This document shows, piece after piece, positions 3,516-61,997 of a DNA stretch of 64,000 bases; the stretch's first letter is position 1, and every line of letters starts with the position of its first letter. The notes under the pieces were generated by a model that saw only the letters and a list, made by a program, of their open reading frames with translations, was not told the origin of the DNA and made no database searches. This DNA comes from Deltaproteobacteria bacterium. Its GTDB lineage: Bacteria; Myxococcota; Myxococcia; Myxococcales; 40CM-4-68-19. The stretch is taken from positions 93,520-157,519 of the forward strand of contig VBKL01000053.1 in NCBI GenBank assembly GCA_005879805.1, given 5' to 3'. The position numbers and the translations under genes were made by a program.

Positions 3516-3657
3516 AACCGCTGGGGCGCCCGAAAAAAAATTACGCATGATGTGTGGCCGGGCAACTTCCTCGAAGGTCCGGCGTGCGTTCCGCTACGGG
3601 GACACGCGGACCCGGAGAGGGAGTGAACGAGCGAGGGCTCAGAGCGTCGGGGCGGCT

Positions 3658-4167
3658 CTACTTGCGTGGCGGAACGTCGATCACGTGGTCCTGGTGCTCG
3701 GTGCTGCCGGGCGAAGCGAGGCTGAGCTTGATCGGCTGCGGGTACAAGTACCCCTGCGGGCCACCGATGGTCTCAGTAACGACGATCTGATCGCGCTCGA
3801 TCGACGTGACCTTGCCCCAGTTGTTGCCGACGTAGTCGCCGATGCGCACGAGCCAGGCGCGACTGTCGGGGGCCAGGAGGACGGCGCTTGGAGAAGCGGT
3901 GCCGGTCACTGTGCCCTTCAGGCTGAACTGATCGACGGGCCATTGCTGGATCGGCGTGGTCCCGCCGAGGTGGGCAGTCATGAACGGGTCGCGCTTGCCG
4001 ACCGGCGAGTAGACGTACAAGGCGTCCGTCCTGGGCGCGGACTGGGACGCGCTCGTAAGGTCCACGGTGGCCAGGCGCACCGGCGGGGGCGGCGCGGCCG
4101 GGGTATGCCGGGTTCCGCAAGCGGCGACGGAAATCGCAATTGCGAAGAGCGTGAGGATACGAGGCAT
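3658..4167 (-). CDS. PilP-like lipoprotein (type IV pilus assembly PilP family), orphan copy
   Basis: 169 aa. Lipobox ISVAAC, a Pro-rich linker, a DPF motif, then a beta-rich C-terminal domain (LKGTV...AVLLAPD...WLVRIGDYVG...GKVTSIERDQIVV). This fits the PilP architecture as I recall it. No pilMNOQ genes are nearby. Confidence 0.65.
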   Translation of the reverse strand: MPRILTLFAIAISVAACGTRHTPAAPPPPVRLATVDLTSASQSAPRTDALYVYSPVGKRDPFMTAHLGGTTPIQQWPVDQFSLKGTVTGTASPSAVLLAPDSRAWLVRIGDYVGNNWGKVTSIERDQIVVTETIGGPQGYLYPQPIKLSLASPGSTEHQDHVIDVPPRK

Positions 4168-4211
4168 CTTTGCACCCTGCGCGCGGGCTCCGCGCTGGAG
4201 CGAAGTCTACA

Positions 4212-4511
4212 CTACTCCCAGCGGTCCTTCTCTTTCCCTTCCTGGATTGTCTGCCATTGCATGTTCGAAGGGCGGTCCCGGCCACCACGCTTGAGCGGGA
4301 TGACGTGGTCGACGATGTATCCGGGGCAGGCACCCGACTTGCGACCAGTGGAGGGACAGGGGTTCTGCTGCATGAACCGCCGCCGCTGCTCGGGGTCGCG
4401 CTTGAGGCGGTCGTGGTGTCCAGGATGGTGGGGCGTCGCACGCCGGCGCGCCTGCGCGGCCTCGGGGGTAAAGGCGAGGAGACCAGCGACGACGAGCGCG
4501 CCGATGCGCAT
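4212..4511 (-). CDS. small secreted HNH-endonuclease-signature protein
   Basis: 99 aa with a signal peptide. CPSTGRKSGACPGYIVDHVIPLKRGGRDRPSNMQWQT carries the DH...N...N core of HNH proteins. Confidence 0.7.
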   Translation of the reverse strand: MRIGALVVAGLLAFTPEAAQARRRATPHHPGHHDRLKRDPEQRRRFMQQNPCPSTGRKSGACPGYIVDHVIPLKRGGRDRPSNMQWQTIQEGKEKDRWE

Positions 4512-4639
4512 GGAGAAGTACGGTACCGCGCGCGTGTGGCGCTGTCAGCGCGTTACGCCGCGTTCGGTTCGGACGCCGACTGTGCGGCGTGCGGTTCGAA
4601 TCCTGGCATCTTGATTGGGCGGTATCTGCCTGCACCGCA

Positions 4640-4741: not shown

Positions 4742-4840
4742 GGTAGCGCGTCCGGATCTGGTGACCGGCCCGGTCTTCAAAACCGGTGGCACGTGCTGAG
4801 AGGCATGTTCGGTGGGTTCGATTCCCATGCGCTACCGCCA
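4742..4840 (+). tRNA. selC: tRNA-Sec (anticodon UCA)
   Basis: 99 nt. The 8-bp acceptor is GGTAGCGC/GCGCTACC, followed by discriminator G and an encoded CCA. The anticodon arm is CCGGT-CTTCAAA-ACCGG. The long variable arm is ACGTGC-TGAGAG-GCATGT. The T arm is GTGGG-TTCGATT-CCCAT. This is the 8/5 geometry typical of bacterial tRNA-Sec. Confidence 0.9.
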
Positions 4841-4891
4841 CTACCTTCCTGAGCTACCTTCTGTTTTCTTCTGACGCAGTCCCGCTCTCCC

Positions 4892-5069
4892 CTACTTCTC
4901 TTCCCAGACGACGAGCTCCAGCAACCGGATCGGGCTTTCCTTGGCTGCGGGGCTCAGGTGCATGTATCGCTGCGTAGTGGTCGGGCTCGCATGGCCGGCG
5001 AGCTCCTGGATCGCCTTCGTCGTCGCGCCTCGGATTGCCGAGGCGCGAGCAGAACGTGTGCCGCAGAAT
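4892..5069 (-). pseudogene. tyrosine recombinase/integrase, 3'-terminal remnant with a 1-nt frameshift
   Basis: The reverse strand reads ILRHTFCSRL in one frame. After one extra nt at about 5039 it reads AIRGATTKAIQELAGHASPTTTQRYMHLSPAAKE...stop in another frame. These are the R-H...Y catalytic C-terminus of phage-type integrases. No N-terminal or core domain lies upstream. Confidence 0.75.
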
Positions 5070-5138
5070 CCACCTATGGCTGCATCGCACGGCGTCGGCC
5101 CGGATGCCGCGGTGACGACCGAGATTTACACTACACAG

Positions 5139-5459
5139 ATGACTCCTGGTGAGCGACGCTTCGACGAGGTGCTCTTGGCTCTTCGCGATATGTTTATGCG
5201 CGCGCAGGGGTCTTCGCCTATCATGCTTGAGGATCTGATCGATCCGACAGTGCGCCGAGAGCCGCGAACGCTGAATTACCTGGTCGCTTCGGCATCGGGC
5301 ACCTTGCAGGACCGGTACTTCACGCCTGCCAACGGGGATAAAATCACCGGGAACGAGAAGGATGAGTTCAATGCTCGGTATCGTGCCCTGCTCGACGAAG
5401 CGGTCGAGCTTGCTTGGCGCCTCTCGTTGCCAGCAGCTCGCGACCGATTCCGCCGGTAG
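5139..5459 (+). CDS. hypothetical protein (lower-GC orphan ORF next to the integrase remnant)
   Basis: ATG at 5139, 106 codons. GC is locally lower than in the flanks. No family recognised. Confidence 0.35.
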   Translation: MTPGERRFDEVLLALRDMFMRAQGSSPIMLEDLIDPTVRREPRTLNYLVASASGTLQDRYFTPANGDKITGNEKDEFNARYRALLDEAVELAWRLSLPAARDRFRR

Positions 5460-5559
5460 CTGATTGCGGGCACGGCGACGATTCATTGTCCGGAGCACTG
5501 CGCCCGCTGCGGAGAGATCAAGACTGCGTGCCCGGCGAGCTCCGGGATCGCCTTGGTCG

Positions 5560-5799
5560 TTATCTACCCGCGCCCCTCACTATCTCGACGAGCGCCGCGA
5601 GCTCCTCGCGGCAACTGGCGCAGAGCCTCTCGTGAGCGCAGGCCTTCTCGAGCCCTTCCGGGACCGCGCGGCCCTCGGCCCGAACCTCGGCGTACTCCGC
5701 CATGAGCGACAGGAAGTCGTCGCAGTCGATCTCGACGTCGCGCGTCTCGCGTGACGCGTTGAGAAGAGACCGCACTTGTTCGTCGCGAAGTCGCATCAT
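5560..5799 (-). CDS. RsrA-like zinc-binding anti-sigma factor (ZAS family)
   Basis: 79 aa. The Cys/His pattern DC-x29-H-x3-C-x2-C (IDCDDFLSLMAEY...CAHERLCASC) parallels the RsrA pattern C11...H37xxxC41xxC44. The start lies 5 nt downstream of the ECF sigma stop. Confidence 0.75.
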   Translation of the reverse strand: MMRLRDEQVRSLLNASRETRDVEIDCDDFLSLMAEYAEVRAEGRAVPEGLEKACAHERLCASCREELAALVEIVRGAGR

Positions 5800-5803
5800 G
5801 TCC

Positions 5804-6418
5804 TCACTCGAAAACCCAGAGTACGTCGGCCTCGCAGATCCCCAGCGCCTCGAGGTGCACCTTCACGCTCTTCCGCGCGTCATGACTCAGCTTATAGAGC
5901 GCGTTTTGCTTCATACCGAGCCGCTCCGCGATCTCCGCGTGTGGCATCCCTTCGAGCTCGGCCACGAGCACCGCGCGCTGCTTCTCCGTCAGTTTCCCCG
6001 CGATGACGTCCGCGAGCGCGCGCAGGACGCGCTCGCGCACCGCGCTCCGCTCTTGCGTCGCCTCCACCCGCGGCTCGAACACGAGAGGCGAACGCGCCCC
6101 CTCGAGCATCGCGTCGAAGGAGACGTCCCTCCACCGCTTGTGACGGAGGTCGTCGAAGGCGATGCGCATGGCGATCGAGAGCGCCCAGGTGGTGAACCGG
6201 CTCTCCCCCCGGAACCCACCGAGCCGCTCGCGAACGCGGAGGAGCGCCTCTTGCGCGAAGTCTTCGCAGAGATCCTCGTCCGCACCGCGCGCCGTGAGCA
6301 CTCTCATGAGCCCGGTGACGAGGACCTCGCGCAGATCGCGACGCGCGGCTTCCCCGTCGGCGCCGTCGTCCGCGATCGCGCGAACCCACTCGGCGTTCTC
6401 GCGGGGCGCTCGCCTCAT
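5804..6418 (-). CDS. ECF-type RNA polymerase sigma-70 family factor
   Basis: The region 2 motif is DLCEDFAQEALLRV...FRGESRFTTWALSIAMRIAFDDLR. The region 4 HTH is TEKQRAVLVAELEGMPHAEIAERLGMKQNALYKLSHDARKSV. I chose the ATG at 6418; the 357-aa ORF extension upstream is not sigma-like. Confidence 0.88.
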   Translation of the reverse strand: MRRAPRENAEWVRAIADDGADGEAARRDLREVLVTGLMRVLTARGADEDLCEDFAQEALLRVRERLGGFRGESRFTTWALSIAMRIAFDDLRHKRWRDVSFDAMLEGARSPLVFEPRVEATQERSAVRERVLRALADVIAGKLTEKQRAVLVAELEGMPHAEIAERLGMKQNALYKLSHDARKSVKVHLEALGICEADVLWVFE

Positions 6419-6604: not shown

Positions 6605-7291
6605 ATGTCCAGCACCAACGCTCCCATCGCCGATCATCTCCTGGCTGATCGTGTCGCCGCATTTCACACCGAGCTCGCGAAGCAGGCGCCGGCCGAGGTC
6701 GTAAGGGCCCTGGTCAGCGAGATCGACGGCGTCGTGCGCTCCGGCGCTGGCGCAAAGGCGCCGCGTGTCGGGGACACGGCGCCGTCGTTCACGCTTCCCG
6801 ACGCCCAGGGCAAGCAGGTGTCGCTCGACTCGCTTCTGAAAGAGGGCCGCGTCGTGATCGCCTTCTACCGCGGTCAATGGTGCCCCTATTGCGACCTGCA
6901 GCTGCGCGCCTACCAGGAGGTCCTTCCGCGAATCAAGGCGCTCGGCGCGAACCTCGTCGCGATCTCTCCGCAGACGCCAGACGAGAGCCTGTCGACGGCA
7001 GAGAAGCGAAAGCTCGAGTTTCGCGTACTCTCGGACGCCGGCAACAAGGTCGCCCGGGGCTACGGGCTCGTGTGGAAGGTGCCGGCTGGTCTCGATGCGA
7101 TCCAGAAGGGCTTCGGCATCAACCTGGCGAAGTCGAATGGCGACGCCTCGAACGAGCTACCGGTTCCGGGGACCTTCGTCTTGGGAGCTGATGGCCGGAT
7201 CGCCTTCAGCTACGTGAATGCCGACTGGCGCGAGCGGCTCGAGCCCGCCGGGATCATCCGCGCCCTCGAAAGACTCGGGAGGGACGAGTGA
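6605..7291 (+). CDS. AhpC/TSA-family redoxin (peroxiredoxin-like, WCPYC active site)
   Basis: 228 aa. VGDTAPSFTLPDAQGKQVSL...VVIAFYRGQWCPYCDLQL is a thioredoxin-fold Prx-like motif. It is divergent from the ECF/ZAS pair. Confidence 0.85.
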   Translation: MSSTNAPIADHLLADRVAAFHTELAKQAPAEVVRALVSEIDGVVRSGAGAKAPRVGDTAPSFTLPDAQGKQVSLDSLLKEGRVVIAFYRGQWCPYCDLQLRAYQEVLPRIKALGANLVAISPQTPDESLSTAEKRKLEFRVLSDAGNKVARGYGLVWKVPAGLDAIQKGFGINLAKSNGDASNELPVPGTFVLGADGRIAFSYVNADWRERLEPAGIIRALERLGRDE

Positions 7292-27078: not shown

Positions 27079-28378
27079 ACAGTTCCTCGGCGGGAAAGAG
27101 TGTGATCACGCGGTGCCCGTCCTTGGTCACGACGACCTCCTCTTCAATCCGCGCCGCCGAATGCCCGTCCTTCGCCGGGCAATAGGTCTCGAGAGCGAAG
27201 ACCATGCCTTCCTGGATCTCCATCGGCCGGTCGAAGGAGACTAGGCGGCTGATGATGGGCCGCTCGTGCAACGCGAGGCCGAGGCCGTGGCCGAACTGGA
27301 GCGCGAAGGCCTCCATCTCGTTGGCGAAGCCGAACTCCTCGGCCTTGGGCCAGCAGGCGGCGAGCTTGTCAGTCGTGACGCCGGGCTTCACCAGCTCGAT
27401 GGAGGCGTCCATCCATTCGCGGGCCTTGCGGTAGGCGTCCCTTTGCACGTCGGTCGCGCGGCCCACGTTGAAGGTCCGGTAATAGCAGGTCCGGTAACCG
27501 GTGAACGACTGGATGATGTCGAAGAACGCCTGGTCGCCCGGCCGGATGATGCGGTCGGTGAAGTTGTGCGGATGCGGGCTGCAGCGCTCGCCCGCGATGG
27601 CGTTGATCCCCTCGACGTCGTCGGAGCCCATCTCGTAGAGCGTCTTGTTGGCGAGCGCGACGATGTCGCACTCCCGGACGCCTGGCTTCAGGTGGTCGGA
27701 GATGACCTGGTACACGCCGTCGACCATCGCCGCCGACATGTTGAGGAGCATGATCTCGTCGACGTTCTTGATCTGGCGCGCGTCGAGCATCGTCTGCTGC
27801 GCGTCGCGTACTTCGAGCCCGGCATCGCGCAAGGCGAAGATCATCGGCAATTCTGCGATGTCGACGCCGATGGGCATCCCCGCGACGCCCTGCTCCTTGA
27901 GGATGGACTTGATCTCTTCCGCGGCGCGCTTGAAAAGGCCGACTTCCGGAGCGACGGAGCCGCGGAGGCCCACCATCCCGGCGAGGCAGTGATCTCGCGG
28001 AAGCCAGGGGGCGTACAGGCGGTGGTGGACGGCCGCGGAACCGAAATCCCACAGCCACGGCTCGCCGTTCCCGGTGAGGAGCGCGAACCGGCACATCTTG
28101 TCGCGCGACCATTCGCCGATGACTGTGCTGGTCAAGTAGCGGATGTTGTTGTTGTCGAAGCAAAGCACGGATCCGAGTTGCGATCCGGCGAGCGCTTGAC
28201 GCGCCCTGGCAAGCCGGTAGTCGTGCAGCCTGCGGAAGTTGACCCGCTCCTCGAAATCCACGGCGGAATGCCCGTGGGCGGGGATCTCCCGGCTCCAGTT
28301 GTAGCCGGGCTTCAAGGCCTCGCCGCCGAGGACCGTGTCCCTGGTGATCTCCTTGGGCTCGCGCGGATGGTCGGGCAT
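27059..28378 (-). CDS. M24-family metallopeptidase-fold hydrolase (creatinase/Xaa-Pro peptidase-like)
   Basis: 439 aa from ATG 28378. The pita-bread C-terminal domain has metal-ligand contexts FDIIQSF..GY, QFGHGLGL and ETY..IEEEV. Confidence 0.8.
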   Translation of the reverse strand: MPDHPREPKEITRDTVLGGEALKPGYNWSREIPAHGHSAVDFEERVNFRRLHDYRLARARQALAGSQLGSVLCFDNNNIRYLTSTVIGEWSRDKMCRFALLTGNGEPWLWDFGSAAVHHRLYAPWLPRDHCLAGMVGLRGSVAPEVGLFKRAAEEIKSILKEQGVAGMPIGVDIAELPMIFALRDAGLEVRDAQQTMLDARQIKNVDEIMLLNMSAAMVDGVYQVISDHLKPGVRECDIVALANKTLYEMGSDDVEGINAIAGERCSPHPHNFTDRIIRPGDQAFFDIIQSFTGYRTCYYRTFNVGRATDVQRDAYRKAREWMDASIELVKPGVTTDKLAACWPKAEEFGFANEMEAFALQFGHGLGLALHERPIISRLVSFDRPMEIQEGMVFALETYCPAKDGHSAARIEEEVVVTKDGHRVITLFPAEELFVANAY

Positions 28379-28502
28379 GCGAAGGCCTCGGGGCCGGAAA
28401 TTGCGCAAACGATTGCAGCCTTTCATTCCATGCCGCCCTTTGATGGTCAACGGGCACGGTCCCTGCTTGACCGCGAACTCCGGCGGCGGGTACGGTCGTC
28501 GG

Positions 28503-29168
28503 ATGTCGAAGCAACGCATCAGCTACGTCGATCCCGATAGCATCGCCGATCCGAAGATGAAGGCGGAGCTCGACCGCTGCCGGCGGGAAGGAACGCCGAG
28601 GCCGGAGAGCCAGGCGGTGCGCGCGCACGTGCCGGCCGTTTTCTGGTCGTTCACCGATACCTGGCGCGAAGTCTTCCACCACGGCGTGCTCGACCACAGC
28701 ATCAAGGAGCTTTGCCGCGTCTACGTCTCGCGATCGGTGAAGTGCGAGTACTGCGGCAACCAGCGCTCGGTGAAGTCGGCGAAGGCCGGGCTCACCGAGG
28801 CGCACTACCTCGACCTCCTCGAGTTCGAGTCCTCCAACCGCTTCGGCCCCCGCGAGAAGGCCGCCCTCGCCTATACCGAAGCGATCGTCTGGGACCTGGA
28901 AACCGACGACGCGATGTGGGATCGGCTGCGCGCCCACTTTACCGAGCCGGAGCTGGTCGAGCTCGGCTACTTCGTCGCCATCACCATGGGCCAGCAGCGG
29001 TGGTTGCGGACCCTGAACATCGACCACCACCAGGTGCTCGCCGGCACGTCCGCCTCGATGGCGCCGGGGATGGCAACCAAGGAAGAGCTCGAGCGCACCA
29101 AGGCGTCGGCGGACTACTGGGCGAAGAAGGATGCCGATTCCGGCCAGCGGCCTCCGGGCGCCGGCTGA
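28503..29168 (+). CDS. carboxymuconolactone decarboxylase/AhpD-like family protein
   Basis: 221 aa. LCRVYVSRSVKCEYCGNQR is the CMD-family CxxC context. Confidence 0.75.
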   Translation: MSKQRISYVDPDSIADPKMKAELDRCRREGTPRPESQAVRAHVPAVFWSFTDTWREVFHHGVLDHSIKELCRVYVSRSVKCEYCGNQRSVKSAKAGLTEAHYLDLLEFESSNRFGPREKAALAYTEAIVWDLETDDAMWDRLRAHFTEPELVELGYFVAITMGQQRWLRTLNIDHHQVLAGTSASMAPGMATKEELERTKASADYWAKKDADSGQRPPGAG

Positions 29169-35340: not shown

Positions 35341-35964
35341 ATGAAGCTCTACGAGGCGGTCCGGTCGTCGGCGTCGTTCCGCGTCCGGATCGCGCTCAAC
35401 TTGAAGTCGCTGCCGTACGAATCGGTCGTCCTCGATCTGCGCAAGGGCGCTCACCGGTCGCCGGATTACGCCCGCGTCAACCCCGCACAAGCGGTCCCTG
35501 CGCTCGTCGACGGGAGTCATACGCTCGCGCAGTCGATGGCCATCCTCGAGTACCTCGACGAGACCCATCCCCGCCCGCCGCTCCTGCCTGCGGCGCCCCT
35601 GGAGCGGGCACGAGTTCGCGGCATCTCGCAGCTCATCTCTTGCGACATCCATCCACTCGACAACTTGCGCGTGCTCTTCAGGCTCGAGAAAGAGCTTCAC
35701 CTCGACCAGTCGGCCATCGACGCGTGGTACCACCACTGGGTCCACGAGGGCTTCCGCGCCCTCGAGCAGATCCTCGCCGAACCCGCAACCGGCGAGTTCT
35801 GCCACGGCGACGCCCCGACGATGGCGGACTGCTGCCTCGTCCCGCAGGTCGTGAACGCCGTGCGCTTCAAGGTCGATCTGGGGAGCTATCCGCGCATCGT
35901 TCACATCCATGAAGCGTGCATGAGGATCGAGGCCTTTGGGAAGGCGCACCCAGACCGGCAGTGA
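35341..35964 (+). CDS. maiA: maleylacetoacetate/maleylpyruvate isomerase (zeta-class GST)
   Basis: SSASFRVRIALNLK is the zeta-GST signature context, with ..VNPAQAVPALVDG..LAQSMAILEYLDE. Confidence 0.88.
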   Translation: MKLYEAVRSSASFRVRIALNLKSLPYESVVLDLRKGAHRSPDYARVNPAQAVPALVDGSHTLAQSMAILEYLDETHPRPPLLPAAPLERARVRGISQLISCDIHPLDNLRVLFRLEKELHLDQSAIDAWYHHWVHEGFRALEQILAEPATGEFCHGDAPTMADCCLVPQVVNAVRFKVDLGSYPRIVHIHEACMRIEAFGKAHPDRQ

Positions 35965-36020
35965 AACTCTCGGCCCCTTCGCGTCGGCCCAGCTCGACGA
36001 AGTGAGGCCCGGCCGGCCGA

Positions 36021-36047
36021 TTGACAGTTCGGGCCGCCTGCGAGAAT
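36021..36047 (+). promoter_or_regulatory. candidate sigma-70 promoter for the tlpA-like/Sec-Prx pair
   Basis: A perfect TTGACA (36021-36026) is followed, 15-16 nt later, by GAGAAT/AGAATC. A perfect -35 hexamer is unusual in this GC-rich background. It would give a very short leader before ATG 36060. Confidence 0.3.
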
Positions 36048-36059
36048 CCTGCGCTCCTC

Positions 36060-36575
36060 ATGAGGCAACGGTCCTTGCGAGCGGGCCTGCTCCTCGCCAT
36101 CGGAATGGCTTTTGGCGTCCTCGCGCAAGACTCGGACGTCTTCATCCTGCGCGAGCATACGCCCGCTCCGGCGTTCTCCCTCCCCGATCTCTCCGGCAAG
36201 AAGTTCGACTCCAAAGCGCTCGCGGGAAAGGTCGCCGTGCTCAGCTTCGGCGCCACCTGGTGCTCGAGCTGCACGAGCGAGCTCAAGAGCCTGGAGAACC
36301 TGCAGGCGAAGTTCCCGAAGGATCTCACCGTCTACTTCGTCGCCATGGACGGCCGCGGAGAGAAGGACGTCAAACCGTACCTGGAAAAGCACGGACACAA
36401 GATCCGCACGCTCCTCGACCCGCAGATGGAAGTGGCACGACGGTACGGTGTCCGCTGGCTCCCGGTGACGGTGGTGCGCGACCGCAAAGGTGTCATCGTC
36501 GGCCGGGCCATCGGCGCGCGCGAGTGGGACGGGAAAGAGGCGCTCGCGTTCATACAGCCACTTACCGGACGATGA
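36060..36575 (+). CDS. exported TlpA/ResA-like thiol-disulfide oxidoreductase (WCSSC)
   Basis: Signal peptide MRQRSLRAGLLLAIGMAFGVLA|QD. PAPAFSLPDLSGKKFDS...VAVLSFGATWCSSCTSEL is the thioredoxin-fold motif. Confidence 0.85.
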   Translation: MRQRSLRAGLLLAIGMAFGVLAQDSDVFILREHTPAPAFSLPDLSGKKFDSKALAGKVAVLSFGATWCSSCTSELKSLENLQAKFPKDLTVYFVAMDGRGEKDVKPYLEKHGHKIRTLLDPQMEVARRYGVRWLPVTVVRDRKGVIVGRAIGAREWDGKEALAFIQPLTGR

Positions 36576-36601
36576 TCTTCACCTCGAGAAGGCGAGGTTC
36601 C

Positions 36602-37144
36602 ATGAGGAACGTGACGAGGATTGTGGTCGGGGTGGTGGCGCTCTTCGCAGGCGCGCCGGTGCTCCCTGCGGCGGCCGTGCAGATCGGCGACAAGGCGCCC
36701 GCCTTCGCCCTGCCCGCGACGACCGCCGAGAAGGTTTCGCTCGCGGACTACCTCGGCAAGAAGAACGTGGTGCTGTTCGGGTTCATCGGCGCTTTCACTC
36801 CGACCTGAACGCGCGAAGTCGCGGCTTTCCAACTTGACCTGCCCAAGTTCGAAAGCCGCAATGCCCAGGTCCTGGGCATCAGCACCGACTTCGTGCCGGC
36901 CAGCCAGGCGTGGAGCGAGAAGATGGGCCTCACCTTCCCGCTGCTCAGCGATATGCCCCGGACGACGCTGGAGGCCTACGGATTCCTCGAGACCGATCCC
37001 AAGAACCGGCTCTATCGTTACGCCAAGCGGGCTTATGCAATTATCGACAAGTCGGGAACGGTTCGATATAGGAAGGTCCTCGATAGTCCCAAGGATCTGG
37101 TCACGAACGACGAGCTGCTCGCCGAGCTCGACAAGCTGAAATAG
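36602..37144 (+). CDS. selenocysteine-containing peroxiredoxin (BCP/AhpC-TSA fold), exported; UGA 36806-36808 decoded as Sec
   Basis: ATG 36602 plus a signal peptide. The sequence reads ..VVLFGFIGAFTPT-[TGA]-TREVAAFQLDLPKFESRNAQVLGISTDF..LTFPLLSD... The TGA sits where Prx proteins have the peroxidatic Cys (FTPxCTxE). The same frame stays open to TAG 37142-37144, and a SECIS-like hairpin follows. Confidence 0.85.
36821..36859 (+). promoter_or_regulatory. SECIS-like hairpin downstream of the in-frame UGA
   Basis: GCGGCTTTC-C-AACTTG-[ACCTGCC]-CAAGTT-C-GAAAGCCGC. It has 9 + 6 perfect base pairs around a 1x1 C/C internal loop and a 7-nt apical loop. It starts 12 nt after the TGA. Confidence 0.8.
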
Positions 37145-37160
37145 CCGGTCTCCCGCCGAT

Positions 37161-37559
37161 CTACCCAACAGATCGCCAACGATTCCGTTCGAAGTCGTAG
37201 AACGACCATGCGAAGGGCGGCCACACGAAGCAACCGAACCTGAGGAGCTCTCCAGGACTGTACCGATAATAAAACTCGTTGAAGGCGAGCGCATACTTCG
37301 CCTTGGGAACCGAGGGAAGGAAGTCCGGCACCAACCCCTGTAAAGCGTCGGGATATCGATCGTGTCTGGCCTTGTATTCCTTGATTGCCGAAACCACCTG
37401 ATCTCCTCGCGTCCGCGCCAACCGGTTGTTGAAGTTGATGGTTGCCATCACGGCGACTAGCGTCAAAGCGTGGATTCCCAACTTGGCCAGGCGCTTGCCA
37501 TGAAACGTCTGCCCCAGGGTCAGGATGATGACGAGCTTGAGTCCTTCCCAGAGGACCAT
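37161..37559 (-). CDS. hypothetical membrane protein (lower GC)
   Basis: 132 aa with two hydrophobic segments. No alternative start exists upstream before an in-frame stop. No family recognised. Confidence 0.45.
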   Translation of the reverse strand: MVLWEGLKLVIILTLGQTFHGKRLAKLGIHALTLVAVMATINFNNRLARTRGDQVVSAIKEYKARHDRYPDALQGLVPDFLPSVPKAKYALAFNEFYYRYSPGELLRFGCFVWPPFAWSFYDFERNRWRSVG

Positions 37560-37608
37560 TCCCGTGAGTGCCGCGAAAGCGAATCCACCATCGCCGAGGC
37601 CGAAGACA

Positions 37609-39540
37609 TTACGTGATCAATCGCGCGATGATCGCGGTCAGTTCGCCGGGCTCGATCGGCTTGGCCAGATGCGCCTGAAACCCCGACTCGAGGGCCTGGC
37701 TCCGGTCCTCATCGCGCGCGAATGCGGTCAGGGCGACCGCGGGGATTCCGCTCATGCCATTGCCCTCGCCGGCGCGGATCTTGCGGATCAAGCAGTACCC
37801 ATCGTGCTCGGGCATTCCTATGTCGCTGACCAGGACATCCGGCTTGAACCGCTCGAGCACGGCCAGCGCCTCGTCGACACAGCCAGCCGTGGCTGTCTCG
37901 GCTCCTGCGTGCTCCAGGATCATGCTCAGTAGCTCACGGGCATCGGCATCGTCGTCCACGACGAGGATCTTGACGCCTTTGAGCGCCGGTGCTCCGGACC
38001 TCACCGCGCCCTCGTGGGAAGGCGATATTCGCTCGGCGGCGTCAGCCCGGCTGCTCATGATGGGAAGTTCGACCGTGAAGTTCGCGCCTCGTCCGTCGCC
38101 CGCGCTCTGCGCGCGGACCGTCCCACCATGGAGGTCGACGATGTGGCGAACGATGGCGAGGCCCAGCCCGAGACCGCCGGTCCTGCGTTGCCCCTGCCGG
38201 AACCGGTCGAAAATTTCGGGCAGCAGCTCGGGTTTGATGCCCATTCCCGTGTCGGCCACCGTGATCCGCGCGATCGATCCCCTGCGCTCAAGGCCAACGT
38301 GCACCTTCGCCTGCGGCTCGCTGAACTTGATCGCGTTCGAAAGCAGGTTCCAGACGACCTGCTGCAGCCGAGCGGGATCCGCGAGCACCGGACCGGCGTC
38401 CGGATCGACCGCGACCTCGAGCTCGATCCTCTTCATGTCGGCAAGGCCCTGGACAGCATCGATCGCCGCCTCGAGGACCACGACCGGATCGACCGGCCGC
38501 CGATCGACCTGGAGCTTGCCGGTCACGATGCGCGACACGTCCAGCAGGTCCTCGATCAGTTGCGCGAGAAGCTTCGTGTTCCGGTCGATCACTTCCAGGC
38601 CGTGCGCGGCCCGGGCGGAGGCGAGCGCTCCCACGCGCAGGAGCCGTGCCCATCCGAGCATGGCGGTGAGCGGCGTGCGCAGCTCATGCGAAACCATCGC
38701 CAGGAATTCGTCCTTCGCCTTGTCCGCCGCGCGCAGCTCGCGCCGGGAATCCTCCAGGTCGCGCACGACCCGCTCGTACGCGCGCATGTCGCGCAGGATG
38801 CCGATTGCCCCGATGACGGTACCGTCAGGATCGCAGAGGGCCGAAGCGTTGAGCGTGGTCGGGATCACCTCGCCCGACGCGCTGCGGGGATTCAGCCGGA
38901 CGTTGCGCGTGACGCCGCGCTCGACCACCTCGCGCAACGCGGCGATGAACTCGCGGGTCTCGTCGGCGGAGATGATGCGCGACAACGATTGCTCGATGAC
39001 CTCGTCCGGACGAAACCCGAGCAGCGTGAACACGGCGTCGTTGGCTTGGAGGATCTTGCCCCGCAAATCGCTGACGAAGACCGGATCTGGAGCGTTCTTG
39101 ATCAGGCTCTCCGCGTATGCGCGAGCCTTGTCCAGCTCGCGCATGTCGCGAAGAATCCCGATGACGCCAATGGGCTGCCCGCGGCCGTTGCGCAGCGCCG
39201 AAGCGTTCAATGTGGTCGGAATCACTTCGCCCGACGCGCTGCCGGCGTTGAGGCGGACGTTTCGCGTCACCCCCTGCTCGACGACCTCGCGCACCGCGGC
39301 GATGAACTCGTAGGTCTCCCTCTCGCTCAGGAAGCGGGACAGCGACTGCTCGAGCACCTCGTCGCGGCGGAGGCCGAGCAGTTGCGAGACCGCCTCGTTC
39401 GCCTCCAGGATCTTCCCGTGCAAGTCGCACACGAAGACAGGATCGGGCGCATTGGCGACAATGACGTCCGCCGCAAGGCTGCCCTGAACATCAGCCGCCG
39501 AGAACCCGTCTGCGCCTACCATGGCCATCTGCCGCTGCAC
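37609..39540 (-). CDS. hybrid sensor histidine kinase (2x PAS - HisKA - HATPase_c - receiver)
   Basis: The H-box is FLAMVSHELRTPL. The N/G boxes are NLLSNAIKF and DTGMGI...GGLGLGLAIV. The C-terminal receiver is ILVVDDD...VLVSDIGMPEHDG...LTAF...HLAKP. Confidence 0.92.
   Translation of the reverse strand: MQRQMAMVGADGFSAADVQGSLAADVIVANAPDPVFVCDLHGKILEANEAVSQLLGLRRDEVLEQSLSRFLSERETYEFIAAVREVVEQGVTRNVRLNAGSASGEVIPTTLNASALRNGRGQPIGVIGILRDMRELDKARAYAESLIKNAPDPVFVSDLRGKILQANDAVFTLLGFRPDEVIEQSLSRIISADETREFIAALREVVERGVTRNVRLNPRSASGEVIPTTLNASALCDPDGTVIGAIGILRDMRAYERVVRDLEDSRRELRAADKAKDEFLAMVSHELRTPLTAMLGWARLLRVGALASARAAHGLEVIDRNTKLLAQLIEDLLDVSRIVTGKLQVDRRPVDPVVVLEAAIDAVQGLADMKRIELEVAVDPDAGPVLADPARLQQVVWNLLSNAIKFSEPQAKVHVGLERRGSIARITVADTGMGIKPELLPEIFDRFRQGQRRTGGLGLGLAIVRHIVDLHGGTVRAQSAGDGRGANFTVELPIMSSRADAAERISPSHEGAVRSGAPALKGVKILVVDDDADARELLSMILEHAGAETATAGCVDEALAVLERFKPDVLVSDIGMPEHDGYCLIRKIRAGEGNGMSGIPAVALTAFARDEDRSQALESGFQAHLAKPIEPGELTAIIARLIT
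38725..39455 (-). repeat. tandem duplication of a ~120-codon PAS module inside the histidine kinase gene
   Basis: Two consecutive units share long identical blocks: APDPVFV.DL.GKIL.AN.AV..LLG.R.DEV.EQSLSR, GVTRNVRLN..SASGEVIPTTLNASAL and IG.IGILRDMR. Confidence 0.8.
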
Positions 39541-50205: not shown

Positions 50206-51759
50206 TCAACTATCCCTTCGCTGCGGAACGATCCGCTGCAGGACGGCTTCGTCGCCGTTTGCGATGGCTACTTCCCCTTCCAGACGCTCGAAATTGCGGC
50301 CGATGGTCGCGAGGGCGAGCGTCTTTCCCCCCTTCCGGTAGGCGATCGCGCAGTCGTCCTTCTCGATCGAGCCGCTCACGTCGATCCGGTCGAAGGAAGC
50401 GGCATGTCCGAGATAGCTGATCGATACCTCGAAATGGTTGCTCCAGAAGAACGGCACGGCATCGAAGGCCGCGTTCTCGCCCAGCAAGTTGCGCGCGACG
50501 CACTGTCCCATCCGCTCCGCCACCACCCAGTGCTCGATGCGGATGGATTCCCCGGTGCGCGGGTCGGGAAAGCGGGCATTGTCGCCGGCGGCCCAGATGC
50601 CCGGAGCGCTGGTGCGGAGGTTGCGATCGACGACGATGCCCTTGTCGACGCGAAGTCCGGCCCTTTCCGCGAGAGCCAGGTCGGGACGGACGCCGACGCC
50701 CATCACTGCCACGTCGGCGGGCAGCGCGGTGCCGTCGGAAATCCGGACCATGCCCGCCTCGATTGCTTGCGGCGTGCGGCCGAGGTGGAAGACGACGCCG
50801 TGCGCCTCGTGCACGGAGCGGACGTGAAGGCCGACCTCGCGGCCGAGGACACGCTCCATGGGAACTTCCTCGGGCGCGACGACGTGTACCTCGAGGCCCC
50901 GGGTGCGCAGGGAAGCCGCGGCCTCGAGGCCGATGAAGCTGGCGCCGATCACCACGGCGCGCTTCGCCCCGGATGCCGCCGCGATGATCTTCCTCGAGTC
51001 CGCGAGCGTGCGGAGGGTGAAGACGTGCGGCAGATCCGCGCCCGGGATTGGCAACCGGATCGGTACCGCTCCCGTGGAGAGAATGATCGCCTCGGCCTCG
51101 ACGTCTTTGCCATTCTCGAGGCCCAGCCTCTTCTTTCCGGCATCGAGCGAGATGGCGCGGTCCCTCACCCTCTCGATGCGCTGCTCAGCGAACCAGTCCG
51201 GTGGCCGGAGGGGAATCCATTCCTCGGGAGCGCTTCCCGCGAGGTAGTCCTTGGACAGGTTCGGGCGATCCGAAGAAGCATCGGGGTCCGGATCGACGAG
51301 CGTGATCGAGCCCCCGTACCCATGACGGCGAAGCATCTCGGCGGCCGCGAATCCAGCCGCGCCGCCCCCGACGATGGCGACCGAACGCGGGCCGCCGCTC
51401 GCCTTGGGCATGGGAGCGTCCGGAAGCTTTTCCGCCACCCGGAACCGGCCGCCGTCGCGCTCGACGCGGTACCGGGCGATGGGAAAGAGAGCGGGCGCCG
51501 CGATCGGCTCTCCCGTACGAAGGTCGAAACAGGCATGGTGCCAGGGGCAGCGGACGGTGTTGCCGACGATCAGGCCCTCCCCGAGCGGACCGCCGTAGTG
51601 GGTGCAACTTGCTCCGACGGCGACCACGTCGTTGCCCGCGCGGCAGGCGATGACGGCCTCTCCGCTTACCTGGCCGGCGAAGGGCGTGGCGCCCTCGAGG
51701 CGCGAGACTTCGGTCCACTGTCCAAGATCGGGGCCCTTCGGCGGCTCGTTTCCACTCAT
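50206..51759 (-). CDS. Rieske [2Fe-2S] domain fused to an FAD/NAD(P)-dependent pyridine nucleotide-disulfide oxidoreductase (AIF/ferredoxin-reductase-like)
   Basis: The Rieske motifs are CTHYGGPL...CPWHHACF. VAIVGGGAAGFAAA and AVVIGASFIGLEAA are the dinucleotide folds. Confidence 0.9.
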   Translation of the reverse strand: MSGNEPPKGPDLGQWTEVSRLEGATPFAGQVSGEAVIACRAGNDVVAVGASCTHYGGPLGEGLIVGNTVRCPWHHACFDLRTGEPIAAPALFPIARYRVERDGGRFRVAEKLPDAPMPKASGGPRSVAIVGGGAAGFAAAEMLRRHGYGGSITLVDPDPDASSDRPNLSKDYLAGSAPEEWIPLRPPDWFAEQRIERVRDRAISLDAGKKRLGLENGKDVEAEAIILSTGAVPIRLPIPGADLPHVFTLRTLADSRKIIAAASGAKRAVVIGASFIGLEAAASLRTRGLEVHVVAPEEVPMERVLGREVGLHVRSVHEAHGVVFHLGRTPQAIEAGMVRISDGTALPADVAVMGVGVRPDLALAERAGLRVDKGIVVDRNLRTSAPGIWAAGDNARFPDPRTGESIRIEHWVVAERMGQCVARNLLGENAAFDAVPFFWSNHFEVSISYLGHAASFDRIDVSGSIEKDDCAIAYRKGGKTLALATIGRNFERLEGEVAIANGDEAVLQRIVPQRRDS

Positions 51760-61487: not shown

Positions 61488-61997
61488 TCAGCGCTTCGGC
61501 TGCCGCGCCTGGCAGGCCTTGCACAAGCCGTAGAGCTCGAGCTTGTGCCGGGTGACGAGGAACCCGTGCTGCCGGGCGACGAGGTCCTGCAATTCCTCGA
61601 TGCGCTCGTTCTCGAACTCGATGATGGCGTGGCAGCTCGTGCAGATGAGGTGGTCGTGGTGGTGGCGGCCGATGGCCGCCTCGTAGCGCGTCTGCCCGTC
61701 CTCGAAGTGCCTTGGGCTCGCGAGCCCCGAGTCGGCGAGGATCTTCATGGTGCGGTAGACGGTGGCCGCGCCGATGTTCTCGTCCCGCTCCTGCACCTTG
61801 CTGAGCAGCTCGTCGACGCTGAGGTGGCCGGTGGCGCCGAAGAACGTGTCGACGATGAGGTCGCGCTGGCGGGTGGCCTTGAGGCCGCGCTCGGCGATCC
61901 ATTCGTTCAGGCGCGTCCGCGCCTCGGCCGGAGTGGCGGCGTCGGGAGGCGGCCGGACACGTGCCCTGGGCGCTGGCGTTTGTGAGCGAGTGGTCAT
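61488..61997 (-). CDS. fur: Fur-family transcriptional regulator
   Basis: SVDELLSKVQERDENIGAATVYRTMKILADSGL is the winged helix. The metal sites are HHHDHLICTSC ... LYGLCKAC. Confidence 0.9.
   Translation of the reverse strand: MTTRSQTPAPRARVRPPPDAATPAEARTRLNEWIAERGLKATRQRDLIVDTFFGATGHLSVDELLSKVQERDENIGAATVYRTMKILADSGLASPRHFEDGQTRYEAAIGRHHHDHLICTSCHAIIEFENERIEELQDLVARQHGFLVTRHKLELYGLCKACQARQPKR

Follow-up and report, generated by a model that had tools for sequence, protein, structure and literature searches.

The biochemical prototype of the peroxiredoxins (Prx) that use selenocysteine (Sec) is PrxU of Eubacterium acidaminophilum. Sec-containing peroxiredoxins (PF00578 with a TxxU motif) appear in a review table as an established family of prokaryotic selenoproteins (PMC13188914), and successive surveys counted 12 members in 2006, three of them in Anaeromyxobacter (PMC1794560), 253 in the GOS metagenome (PMC2398784) and 91 in 78 organisms (PMC5029168). 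For a Cys-based peroxiredoxin of the cell envelope, a periplasmic peroxide-reduction pathway leading from ScsB via TlpA to PprX has been demonstrated experimentally in Caulobacter crescentus (PMC3322552). Here, we describe a locus that seems to combine the two themes. It lies in a stretch of 64,000 nt from a Deltaproteobacteria bacterium of the Myxococcales (positions 93,520 to 157,519 of contig VBKL01000053.1), the whole of which we refer to as the window. At 36060-37144 on the forward strand, the window carries an operon-like cassette of a TlpA-like oxidoreductase gene followed by a peroxiredoxin gene with an in-frame TGA codon. The peroxiredoxin gene is a genuine, mis-annotated selenoprotein gene of a known kind. 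By analogy with the Caulobacter TlpA-PprX couple, the cassette would encode a periplasmic selenoperoxidase that is recycled by its TlpA-like partner, a reading to which we assign a probability of roughly 0.8.

The Sec-Prx gene (36602-37144, forward strand) comprises 180 codons from ATG 36602 to the TAG that ends at 37144. Its in-frame translation is interrupted only once, by the TGA at 36806-36808 in the context GAFTPT*TREVAAF. The initial annotation had pointed out that the open reading frame (ORF) 35936-36808 closes at this TGA and that its frame continues into ORF 36893-37144; our coordinates and the 180-codon translation agree with this. The TGA is codon 69 (Sec69) and stands for the peroxidatic residue of the motif F-T-P-T-U-T-R-E. 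In alignments it falls on the catalytic Cys of BCP/PrxQ structures (FTQVCTKE in 2ywn, FSPVCTKE in 2cx3) as well as on that of Cys-containing homologues, exactly where a peroxidatic Cys had been expected. When the stop is read as Cys, the read-through protein matches the Pfam domain AhpC-TSA over residues 28-156 and model positions 1-123 of 124 (E = 3.7e-33; 114.5 bits against a Pfam cutoff of 26). Since this match crosses the TGA, a single thioredoxin-fold domain is split by it. An alternative in-frame ATG at 36572, which overlaps the stop codon of the partner gene as ATGA and would prepend MIFTSRRRGS, is a possible start for translational coupling; ATG 36602 agrees better with the orthologues. 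A promoter and terminator scan of 35800-37700 returned nothing usable.

Throughout the window, TGA also serves as an ordinary stop. The partner gene, which ends 230 nt upstream of the Sec codon, terminates in it, and so do 19 of the 31 ORFs that passed a coding-composition filter, among which TGA is the commonest stop; the code is therefore not reassigned. In a systematic scan of the window for recoded TGA codons, the one at 36806 was the only credible case. Two other in-frame TGAs, both on the minus strand, were rejected after translation, since each separates two normal neighbouring genes whose frames coincide by chance. At 50206 these are a Rieske/reductase gene and then a gene for a substrate-binding protein, at 61488 a Fur-like and then a PhoH-like gene.

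The strongest evidence that the TGA is translated comes from comparison with related loci. Relatives were searched for among 5.8 billion proteins, and 80 loci from species-representative genomes were fetched and compared. Every one of the 70 loci that reach 45% identity has a TGA at the identical aligned codon, well beyond what chance would produce. Nine more distant loci (L071-L078 and L080; 30-43% identity) have TGC or TGT at this codon, and the genomes sampled yielded no Cys-form orthologue with more than about 43% identity. According to the labels of their metagenome-assembled genomes (MAGs), the 70 TGA loci span about eight phyla and include Myxococcaceae/Myxococcales, Rokuibacteriota (Rokubacteria), Methylomirabilia, Acidobacteriota/Thermoanaerobaculia, Planctomycetota, Beta- and Gammaproteobacteria (mostly Burkholderiales), Entotheonellaceae/Tectimicrobiota and Nitrospinota. 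Some of these labels look implausible, namely those of the "Bordetella parapertussis" MAGs (L021, L029, L034, L049, L053 and L062) and of a "Streptomycetaceae" MAG (L057), whose cassettes group with environmental Burkholderiales and Betaproteobacteria. The peptide is kept on both flanks of the TGA, including the 28 codons that precede the first possible restart, GTG 36893; with the peptide conserved in 70 genome loci, the earlier suggestion that the frame beyond the TGA is translated holds.

Two further TGA-containing peroxiredoxins came to light in this comparison. Locus L033 has a second, divergent paralogue (5487-5963; 34% identity) 1.5 kb downstream of the first. In a Terriglobia genome (L079:4001-4405) we observed an unrelated-looking Sec-Prx with the motif FTGGUTTE and without the conserved hairpin sequence described below; its signal-peptide-like N-terminus contains a Cys, so that a lipoprotein signal is conceivable.

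Gene callers treat the TGA as a true stop, which would make the locus either a pseudogene or an N-terminal stub followed by an independently started C-terminal fragment. Such calls are frequent: the same locus in three metagenome assemblies from soil and other sources (L081-L083) is annotated as separate 68-aa and 73-aa products, and close relatives in the protein collections are either 107-110-aa C-terminal sequences that start just past the Sec codon or full-length sequences with a "W" at this position. The frequent use of TGA as an ordinary stop in the window would also fit a true stop. Set against this are the placement of the TGA at precisely the catalytic codon in 70 of 70 loci, the conservation of the peptide on both sides of it and across the stretch before GTG 36893, the fact that neither fragment alone makes up a complete thioredoxin fold, and the presence of a conserved, covarying hairpin and of a tRNA-Sec gene. 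We therefore consider a true stop to be extremely improbable. The 107-110-aa stubs and the "W" translations are products of gene callers confronted with an in-frame TGA, and the prediction that standard callers would truncate or split the gene is borne out by them and by the 68-aa and 73-aa calls.

A SECIS-like hairpin (selenocysteine insertion sequence) is located within the coding sequence at 36821-36859 on the forward strand and begins 12 nt past the TGA, as the initial annotation had described. It has the sequence GCGGCUUUC-C-AACUUG-[ACCUGCC]-CAAGUU-C-GAAAGCCGC. A C/C internal loop separates its lower stem of 9 bp from its upper stem of 6 bp (36831-36836 paired with 36844-36849), and its apical loop (36837-36843) has 7 nt. 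The hairpin forms the core of the minimum free energy (MFE) fold of 36800-36870 (-27.7 kcal/mol, z = -3.6), and only 1 of 200 shuffled sequences was as stable. The same hairpin is found at the same place in all 70 orthologues. In a gap-free alignment of these 70 sequences, 65 of them distinct, 80.8% of the cells pair in the window-type structure, and the covariation score of 0.176 was reached by none of 500 shuffles (0.140 ± 0.005). Registers slid by one to three columns scored far lower. For instance, the pair of alignment columns 33-61 is CG in 49, UA in 10 and UG in 6 of the distinct sequences and broken in none, whereas pairs 34-60, 35-59 and 36-58 as well as five of the six upper-stem pairs are formed essentially always. 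RNAalifold recovered the same hairpin core without a supplied structure. A lower-stem register shifted by one, which is favoured by single-sequence folds of betaproteobacterial members, was discarded, since it lacks the covariation signal of the window-type register. The dimensions of the hairpin (loop of 7 nt, upper stem of 6 bp, 28 nt from UGA to loop, MFE of -22.8 kcal/mol) all lie within the limits published for bacterial SECIS (bSECIS) elements, namely an apical loop of 3-9 nt, an upper stem of 4-16 bp, a UGA-to-loop distance of 16-37 nt and an MFE of at most -7.5 kcal/mol (PMC13188914).

Because the hairpin lies within a strongly conserved peptide segment, AAFQLDLPKFE, its conservation could in principle be a by-product of selection on the protein. 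In that case the UGA might be read without selenium, as Trp or Cys, through near-cognate decoding or a reassigned code. Some public translations indeed carry Trp at the Sec column (P0001, P0014, P0017, P0018, P0020, P0032 and P0037, mostly from JGI); these apparently stem from a code-4 style call. To this may be added that selA, selB and selD were not seen among the window ORFs. A Trp at the peroxidatic position would, however, be catalytically dead, and TGA terminates the adjacent gene and most coding-like ORFs of the same window. Moreover, when 300 synonymous versions of the same 15 codons were generated with the codon usage of the window, none was as stable as the native hairpin (mean of -11.6 against -22.8 kcal/mol; z = -3.9). 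The hairpin also contains codons that are rare in the window (GCT 7%, CAA 14%, CTT 6% and GAA 21%), and thus the conserved peptide alone does not explain it. Compensatory changes in the stem include synonymous ones. The same recoding test gave a weaker signal in other clades, where it was still run with the codon usage of this window (median z = -1.75).

A gene for the cognate tRNA is present as well. The tRNA-Sec gene (selC; 4742-4840, forward strand, anticodon UCA), which the initial annotation had placed in the same window, was identified both by ARAGORN and with Rfam model RF01852 (72.3 bits against a gathering score of 47; E = 7.4e-13) and lies 32 kb from the Sec-Prx gene. Taken together, the recoding test, the rare codons, the compensatory changes and this tRNA make a read-through without selenium very improbable in our view. 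More generally, the conservation of the TGA and of its flanks, together with the ordinary use of TGA as a stop elsewhere, renders both a pseudogene and a reassigned code very unlikely, and we continue with the gene as one that encodes a selenoprotein.

The Sec-Prx protein is predicted to be exported. Its N-terminus, MRNVTRIVVGVVALFAGAPVLPAAA (36602-36676, forward strand), resembles a signal peptide of the Sec secretion pathway with predicted cleavage before VQIGDKAP. It has N-terminal positive residues, a hydrophobic core with a 10-residue Kyte-Doolittle maximum of 3.1 and an AxA-type end. All reconstructed orthologues have a similar presequence, whose AxA-type end directly precedes a conserved (V/L)(Q/E)(V/I)GDxAP. 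By such simple, heuristic criteria the signal peptide is supported as a family-wide feature, in line with the signal peptide proposed at the outset, and it suggests that the protein acts outside the cytoplasm. The mature part contains no Cys in any of the 57 reconstructed orthologues. The protein may therefore be regarded as a "1-Sec" peroxiredoxin which needs an external resolving thiol. The T-x-x-U motif is present (F-T66-P-T-U69) and is retained in most orthologues, and the catalytic Arg that peroxiredoxins conserve, here Arg143 (37028-37030, forward strand; R118 in mature numbering), does not vary in either of the two protein alignments.

Among proteins of known structure, the closest sequences are the archaeal BCP/PrxQ 2ywn (1.3e-23), followed by 2cx3 and 3hjp, together with AhpE of Mycobacterium tuberculosis (1xxu). 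These matches range from E = 1.3e-23 to 4.5e-16 and cover essentially the entire mature protein. No NCBIfam model reaches its cutoff for the Sec-Prx protein; the PrxU model NF040737 scores 46.3 bits against a cutoff of 270 and Prx-SUH 25 bits against 298. A structure model that was led by a "W"-containing homologue was judged uninformative and set aside.

The partner gene (36060-36575, forward strand) encodes a TlpA/ResA-like thioredoxin-fold oxidoreductase of 171 aa with a predicted signal peptide, MRQRSLRAGLLLAIGMAFGVLA, and is our candidate for the reductant. It most likely starts at ATG 36060, ends 26 nt before ATG 36602 and contains the active-site motif WCSSC at 36258-36272. The protein is above the Pfam thresholds of AhpC-TSA, Redoxin, Thioredoxin_2 and Thioredoxin_8, with the best matches on PF00578 and PF08534, and its best NCBIfam matches remain below their cutoffs (ResA 67 against 170, TlpA 54.6 against 230). 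Of the 65 Sec loci with enough upstream DNA, 63 have a TlpA-like gene directly before the Sec-Prx gene and in the same orientation, which lends weight to the functional link between the two genes that the initial annotation had drawn from their adjacency. Both exceptions (L035 and L052) come from one Nitrospinota MAG, and for L039 the upstream DNA is too short to decide. In an all-against-all clustering of the ORFs of 71 loci, the TlpA-like gene was the only neighbour conserved across clades; further genes that recur nearby are metabolic ones specific to particular clades.

In 56 loci, all within L008-L070 (for example L011:3327-3947), the first active-site Cys of the partner is itself replaced by a TGA, so that the motif reads W-U-x-x-C. 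These loci belong to Betaproteobacteria/Burkholderiales, Entotheonella, Planctomycetota and others. A conserved hairpin, UGCCCUC-CGUGCA-GAGGGCA, begins 22 nt downstream of this TGA; it has a GU in its loop and covaries with compensatory variants. As judged from these features, 56 genomes appear to carry a two-selenoprotein cassette. The window and its nearest relatives (L001-L007) have the Cys form of the partner (WCSSC, WCPTC or WCASC). The position of the partner TGA at the first active-site Cys indicates that both active sites track selenium use. Since the partner switches between Cys and Sec beside a peroxiredoxin that is always Sec and has no resolving residue, the circumstantial case for a reaction between the two active sites is good.

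From the anatomy of the two genes and the Caulobacter ScsB-TlpA-PprX precedent, we infer selenium incorporation, export, peroxidase activity, the role of the partner as reductant and an upstream electron donor, and the following course can be envisaged. The hairpin at 36821-36859 would act as a bacterial SECIS element for SelB and tRNA-Sec and direct the insertion of Sec at UGA 36806-36808. Both the peroxiredoxin and its TlpA-like partner would be exported via the Sec pathway. In the periplasm, the selenolate of Sec69, aided by Thr66 and Arg143, would attack the peroxide and be oxidised to the selenenic acid. Cys68, the first Cys of the partner WCSSC motif, would then attack the selenenic acid and form a selenenylsulfide (Se-S) bond, which Cys71 of the partner would resolve; in most other lineages, the bond between the two proteins would be Se-Se. 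A DsbD/CcdA/ScsB-type electron shuttle in the membrane would presumably return the oxidised partner to its reduced state.

Several observations speak against such a periplasmic selenoperoxidase and have to be weighed at each of these steps. At the level of Sec insertion, the bSECIS model requires a G in the first two loop positions (PMC13188914), and the predicted loop ACCUGCC has none there. Opening the closing pair G36836-C36844 gives the 9-nt loop GACCUGCCC, which satisfies this rule, and a subset of real bSECIS elements fail the model (PMC13188914). Rfam scans of 36700-36960, at gathering thresholds as well as at permissive E-values, returned no SECIS family and only chance hits to miRNA models; Rfam apparently has no applicable model for bacterial SECIS elements. 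Furthermore, none of the 37 ORFs of the 64-kb window that were scanned with Pfam corresponds to selA, selB or selD. At the level of electron supply, DsbD, CcdA or ScsB were found neither among the conserved neighbours in the 71 loci nor among the scanned window ORFs; the membrane electron donor could be encoded elsewhere. At the active site, Ile62 takes the place of the Pro in the canonical PxxxTxxC motif (F-I-G-A-F-T-P-T-U compared to Y-P-A-A-F-T-Q-V-C in 2ywn), and this Pro is absent clade-wide. Loci L035, L039 and L052 (FGGVU or FGRSU), of which L035 and L052 are labelled Nitrospinota and L039 only "bacterium", moreover lack the Thr of T-x-x-U, and the chemistry or the partner may differ in this subclade. 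The clade-wide loss of the Pro, together with the loss of both the Thr and the partner in the Nitrospinota subclade, means that peroxidase chemistry is not guaranteed.

Because of these two missing residues, we keep alive as the main functional rival the view that the protein is an exported selenoprotein which is not primarily a peroxidase, and that the pair acts as a thiol/selenol-disulfide oxidoreductase on envelope proteins, with sulfenic acids, methionine sulfoxide or metal centres as example substrates. TlpA-family proteins have several known clients other than peroxidases, the ScsB study itself reported, in addition, a Prx-like protein whose function is unknown (PMC3322552), and the peroxidase activity proposed here is read from the sequence. 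Yet the window protein, like most of the clade, keeps Thr-x-x-U and the invariant catalytic Arg, the best structure matches over the whole domain are to bona fide BCP/PrxQ and AhpE peroxidases, and a lone, highly nucleophilic Sec with an external resolving dithiol corresponds to the classic 1-Cys Prx arrangement. We therefore regard the alternative as unlikely, though clearly less so than a true stop or a read-through without selenium, and we favour the periplasmic selenoperoxidase that is recycled by its TlpA-like partner.

If this reading is correct, the cassette suggests a selenium-based peroxide defence in the bacterial envelope, and the natural Cys/Sec contrast of the partner offers a means of testing why Sec is preferred. 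The annotation error is common to the 70 species-representative genomes, and in 56 of them the neighbouring gene is a selenoprotein that is mis-called too. The clade is not covered by any NCBIfam model, and a curated model for the Prx/TlpA-like pair would repair many annotations. The corrected calls would raise selenoproteome estimates for soil and freshwater Burkholderiales, Myxococcota, Rokubacteria and Entotheonella. The conserved two-gene cassette thus deserves curation.

Some further features of the window concern related redox genes and the surroundings of selC. The ORFs which flank the tRNA-Sec gene (3547-4614 on the plus and 4854-5498 on the minus strand) have no Pfam match, and according to the composition filter the true genes in this region may be on the minus strand at 3658-4206 and 4212-4544. 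About 1.8 kb downstream of the tRNA-Sec gene lies a second AhpC/TSA-family ORF (6605-7291, plus strand) of 228 aa, an uninterrupted Cys form with the motif WCPYC and no obvious signal peptide. CMD/AhpD-like proteins are another redox family with known Sec forms; a carboxymuconolactone decarboxylase (CMD/AhpD-like) ORF at 28305-29168 on the plus strand has no in-frame TGA.

How, then, does the locus compare with what has been described? With the Sec-Prx family it shares the AhpC/TSA domain, a Sec in place of the peroxidatic Cys in T-x-x-U and a SECIS-type hairpin just past the UGA. The window gene fits the definition of this family in the literature, and its kind is therefore not new. In contrast to the described family, the window protein has a signal peptide, no resolving Cys in its mature part and a replaced motif Pro; its clade is obligately paired with the TlpA-like gene, and the search turned up no orthologue of the Cys form that exceeds about 43% identity. 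It is an equivalog of neither PrxU nor Prx-SUH, as its scores fall below their cutoffs. Its Sec aligns with the peroxidatic Cys of the archaeal BCP/PrxQ proteins (2ywn, 2cx3 and 3hjp) and of AhpE (1xxu), but these are cytoplasmic Cys enzymes with the canonical Pro, and the overall sequence similarity is modest.

The partner has its own counterpart among known selenoproteins. The 56 W-U-x-x-C partners with their SECIS-like hairpin fit the description of the Prx-like thiol:disulfide oxidoreductases, or "Prx-like 1" proteins (PF00578 with UxxC; PMC13188914, PMC2398784), whereas the partner in the window, with its WCSSC, is the Cys form and not a selenoprotein. The GOS study reported other pairs of neighbouring selenoproteins, not the Prx/TlpA-like pair (PMC2398784). 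An exported, Cys-free clade with no close Cys orthologue among the genomes sampled and a fixed pairing with a TlpA-like partner, in most cases a selenoprotein too, is possibly undescribed in the literature examined, and as this literature was covered in part, the novelty of the clade is possible rather than shown. It is a tentative proposal, to which we give somewhat less than even odds, that the TlpA-like protein and the exported, Cys-free "1-Sec" peroxiredoxin encoded beside it constitute a distinct, uncurated envelope module in about eight phyla, with both proteins being Sec-containing in most lineages and turning over via Se-Se bonds, with no close Cys-form orthologue recovered, and with a Prx hairpin that departs from the bSECIS loop rule.

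The closest functional precedent remains the TlpA-PprX couple of Caulobacter. PprX is a Cys enzyme with the canonical PxxxTxxC motif and a resolving Cys, whereas the window protein uses Sec and has no other Cys. No ScsB, DsbD or CcdA was found near the window genes, which, unlike those of the Caulobacter pathway, are adjacent and conserved as a pair. What the two systems would have in common, with export in the window predicted by heuristics, is an exported peroxiredoxin of the BCP/PrxQ type together with an exported, TlpA-like reductant with a CxxC active site.

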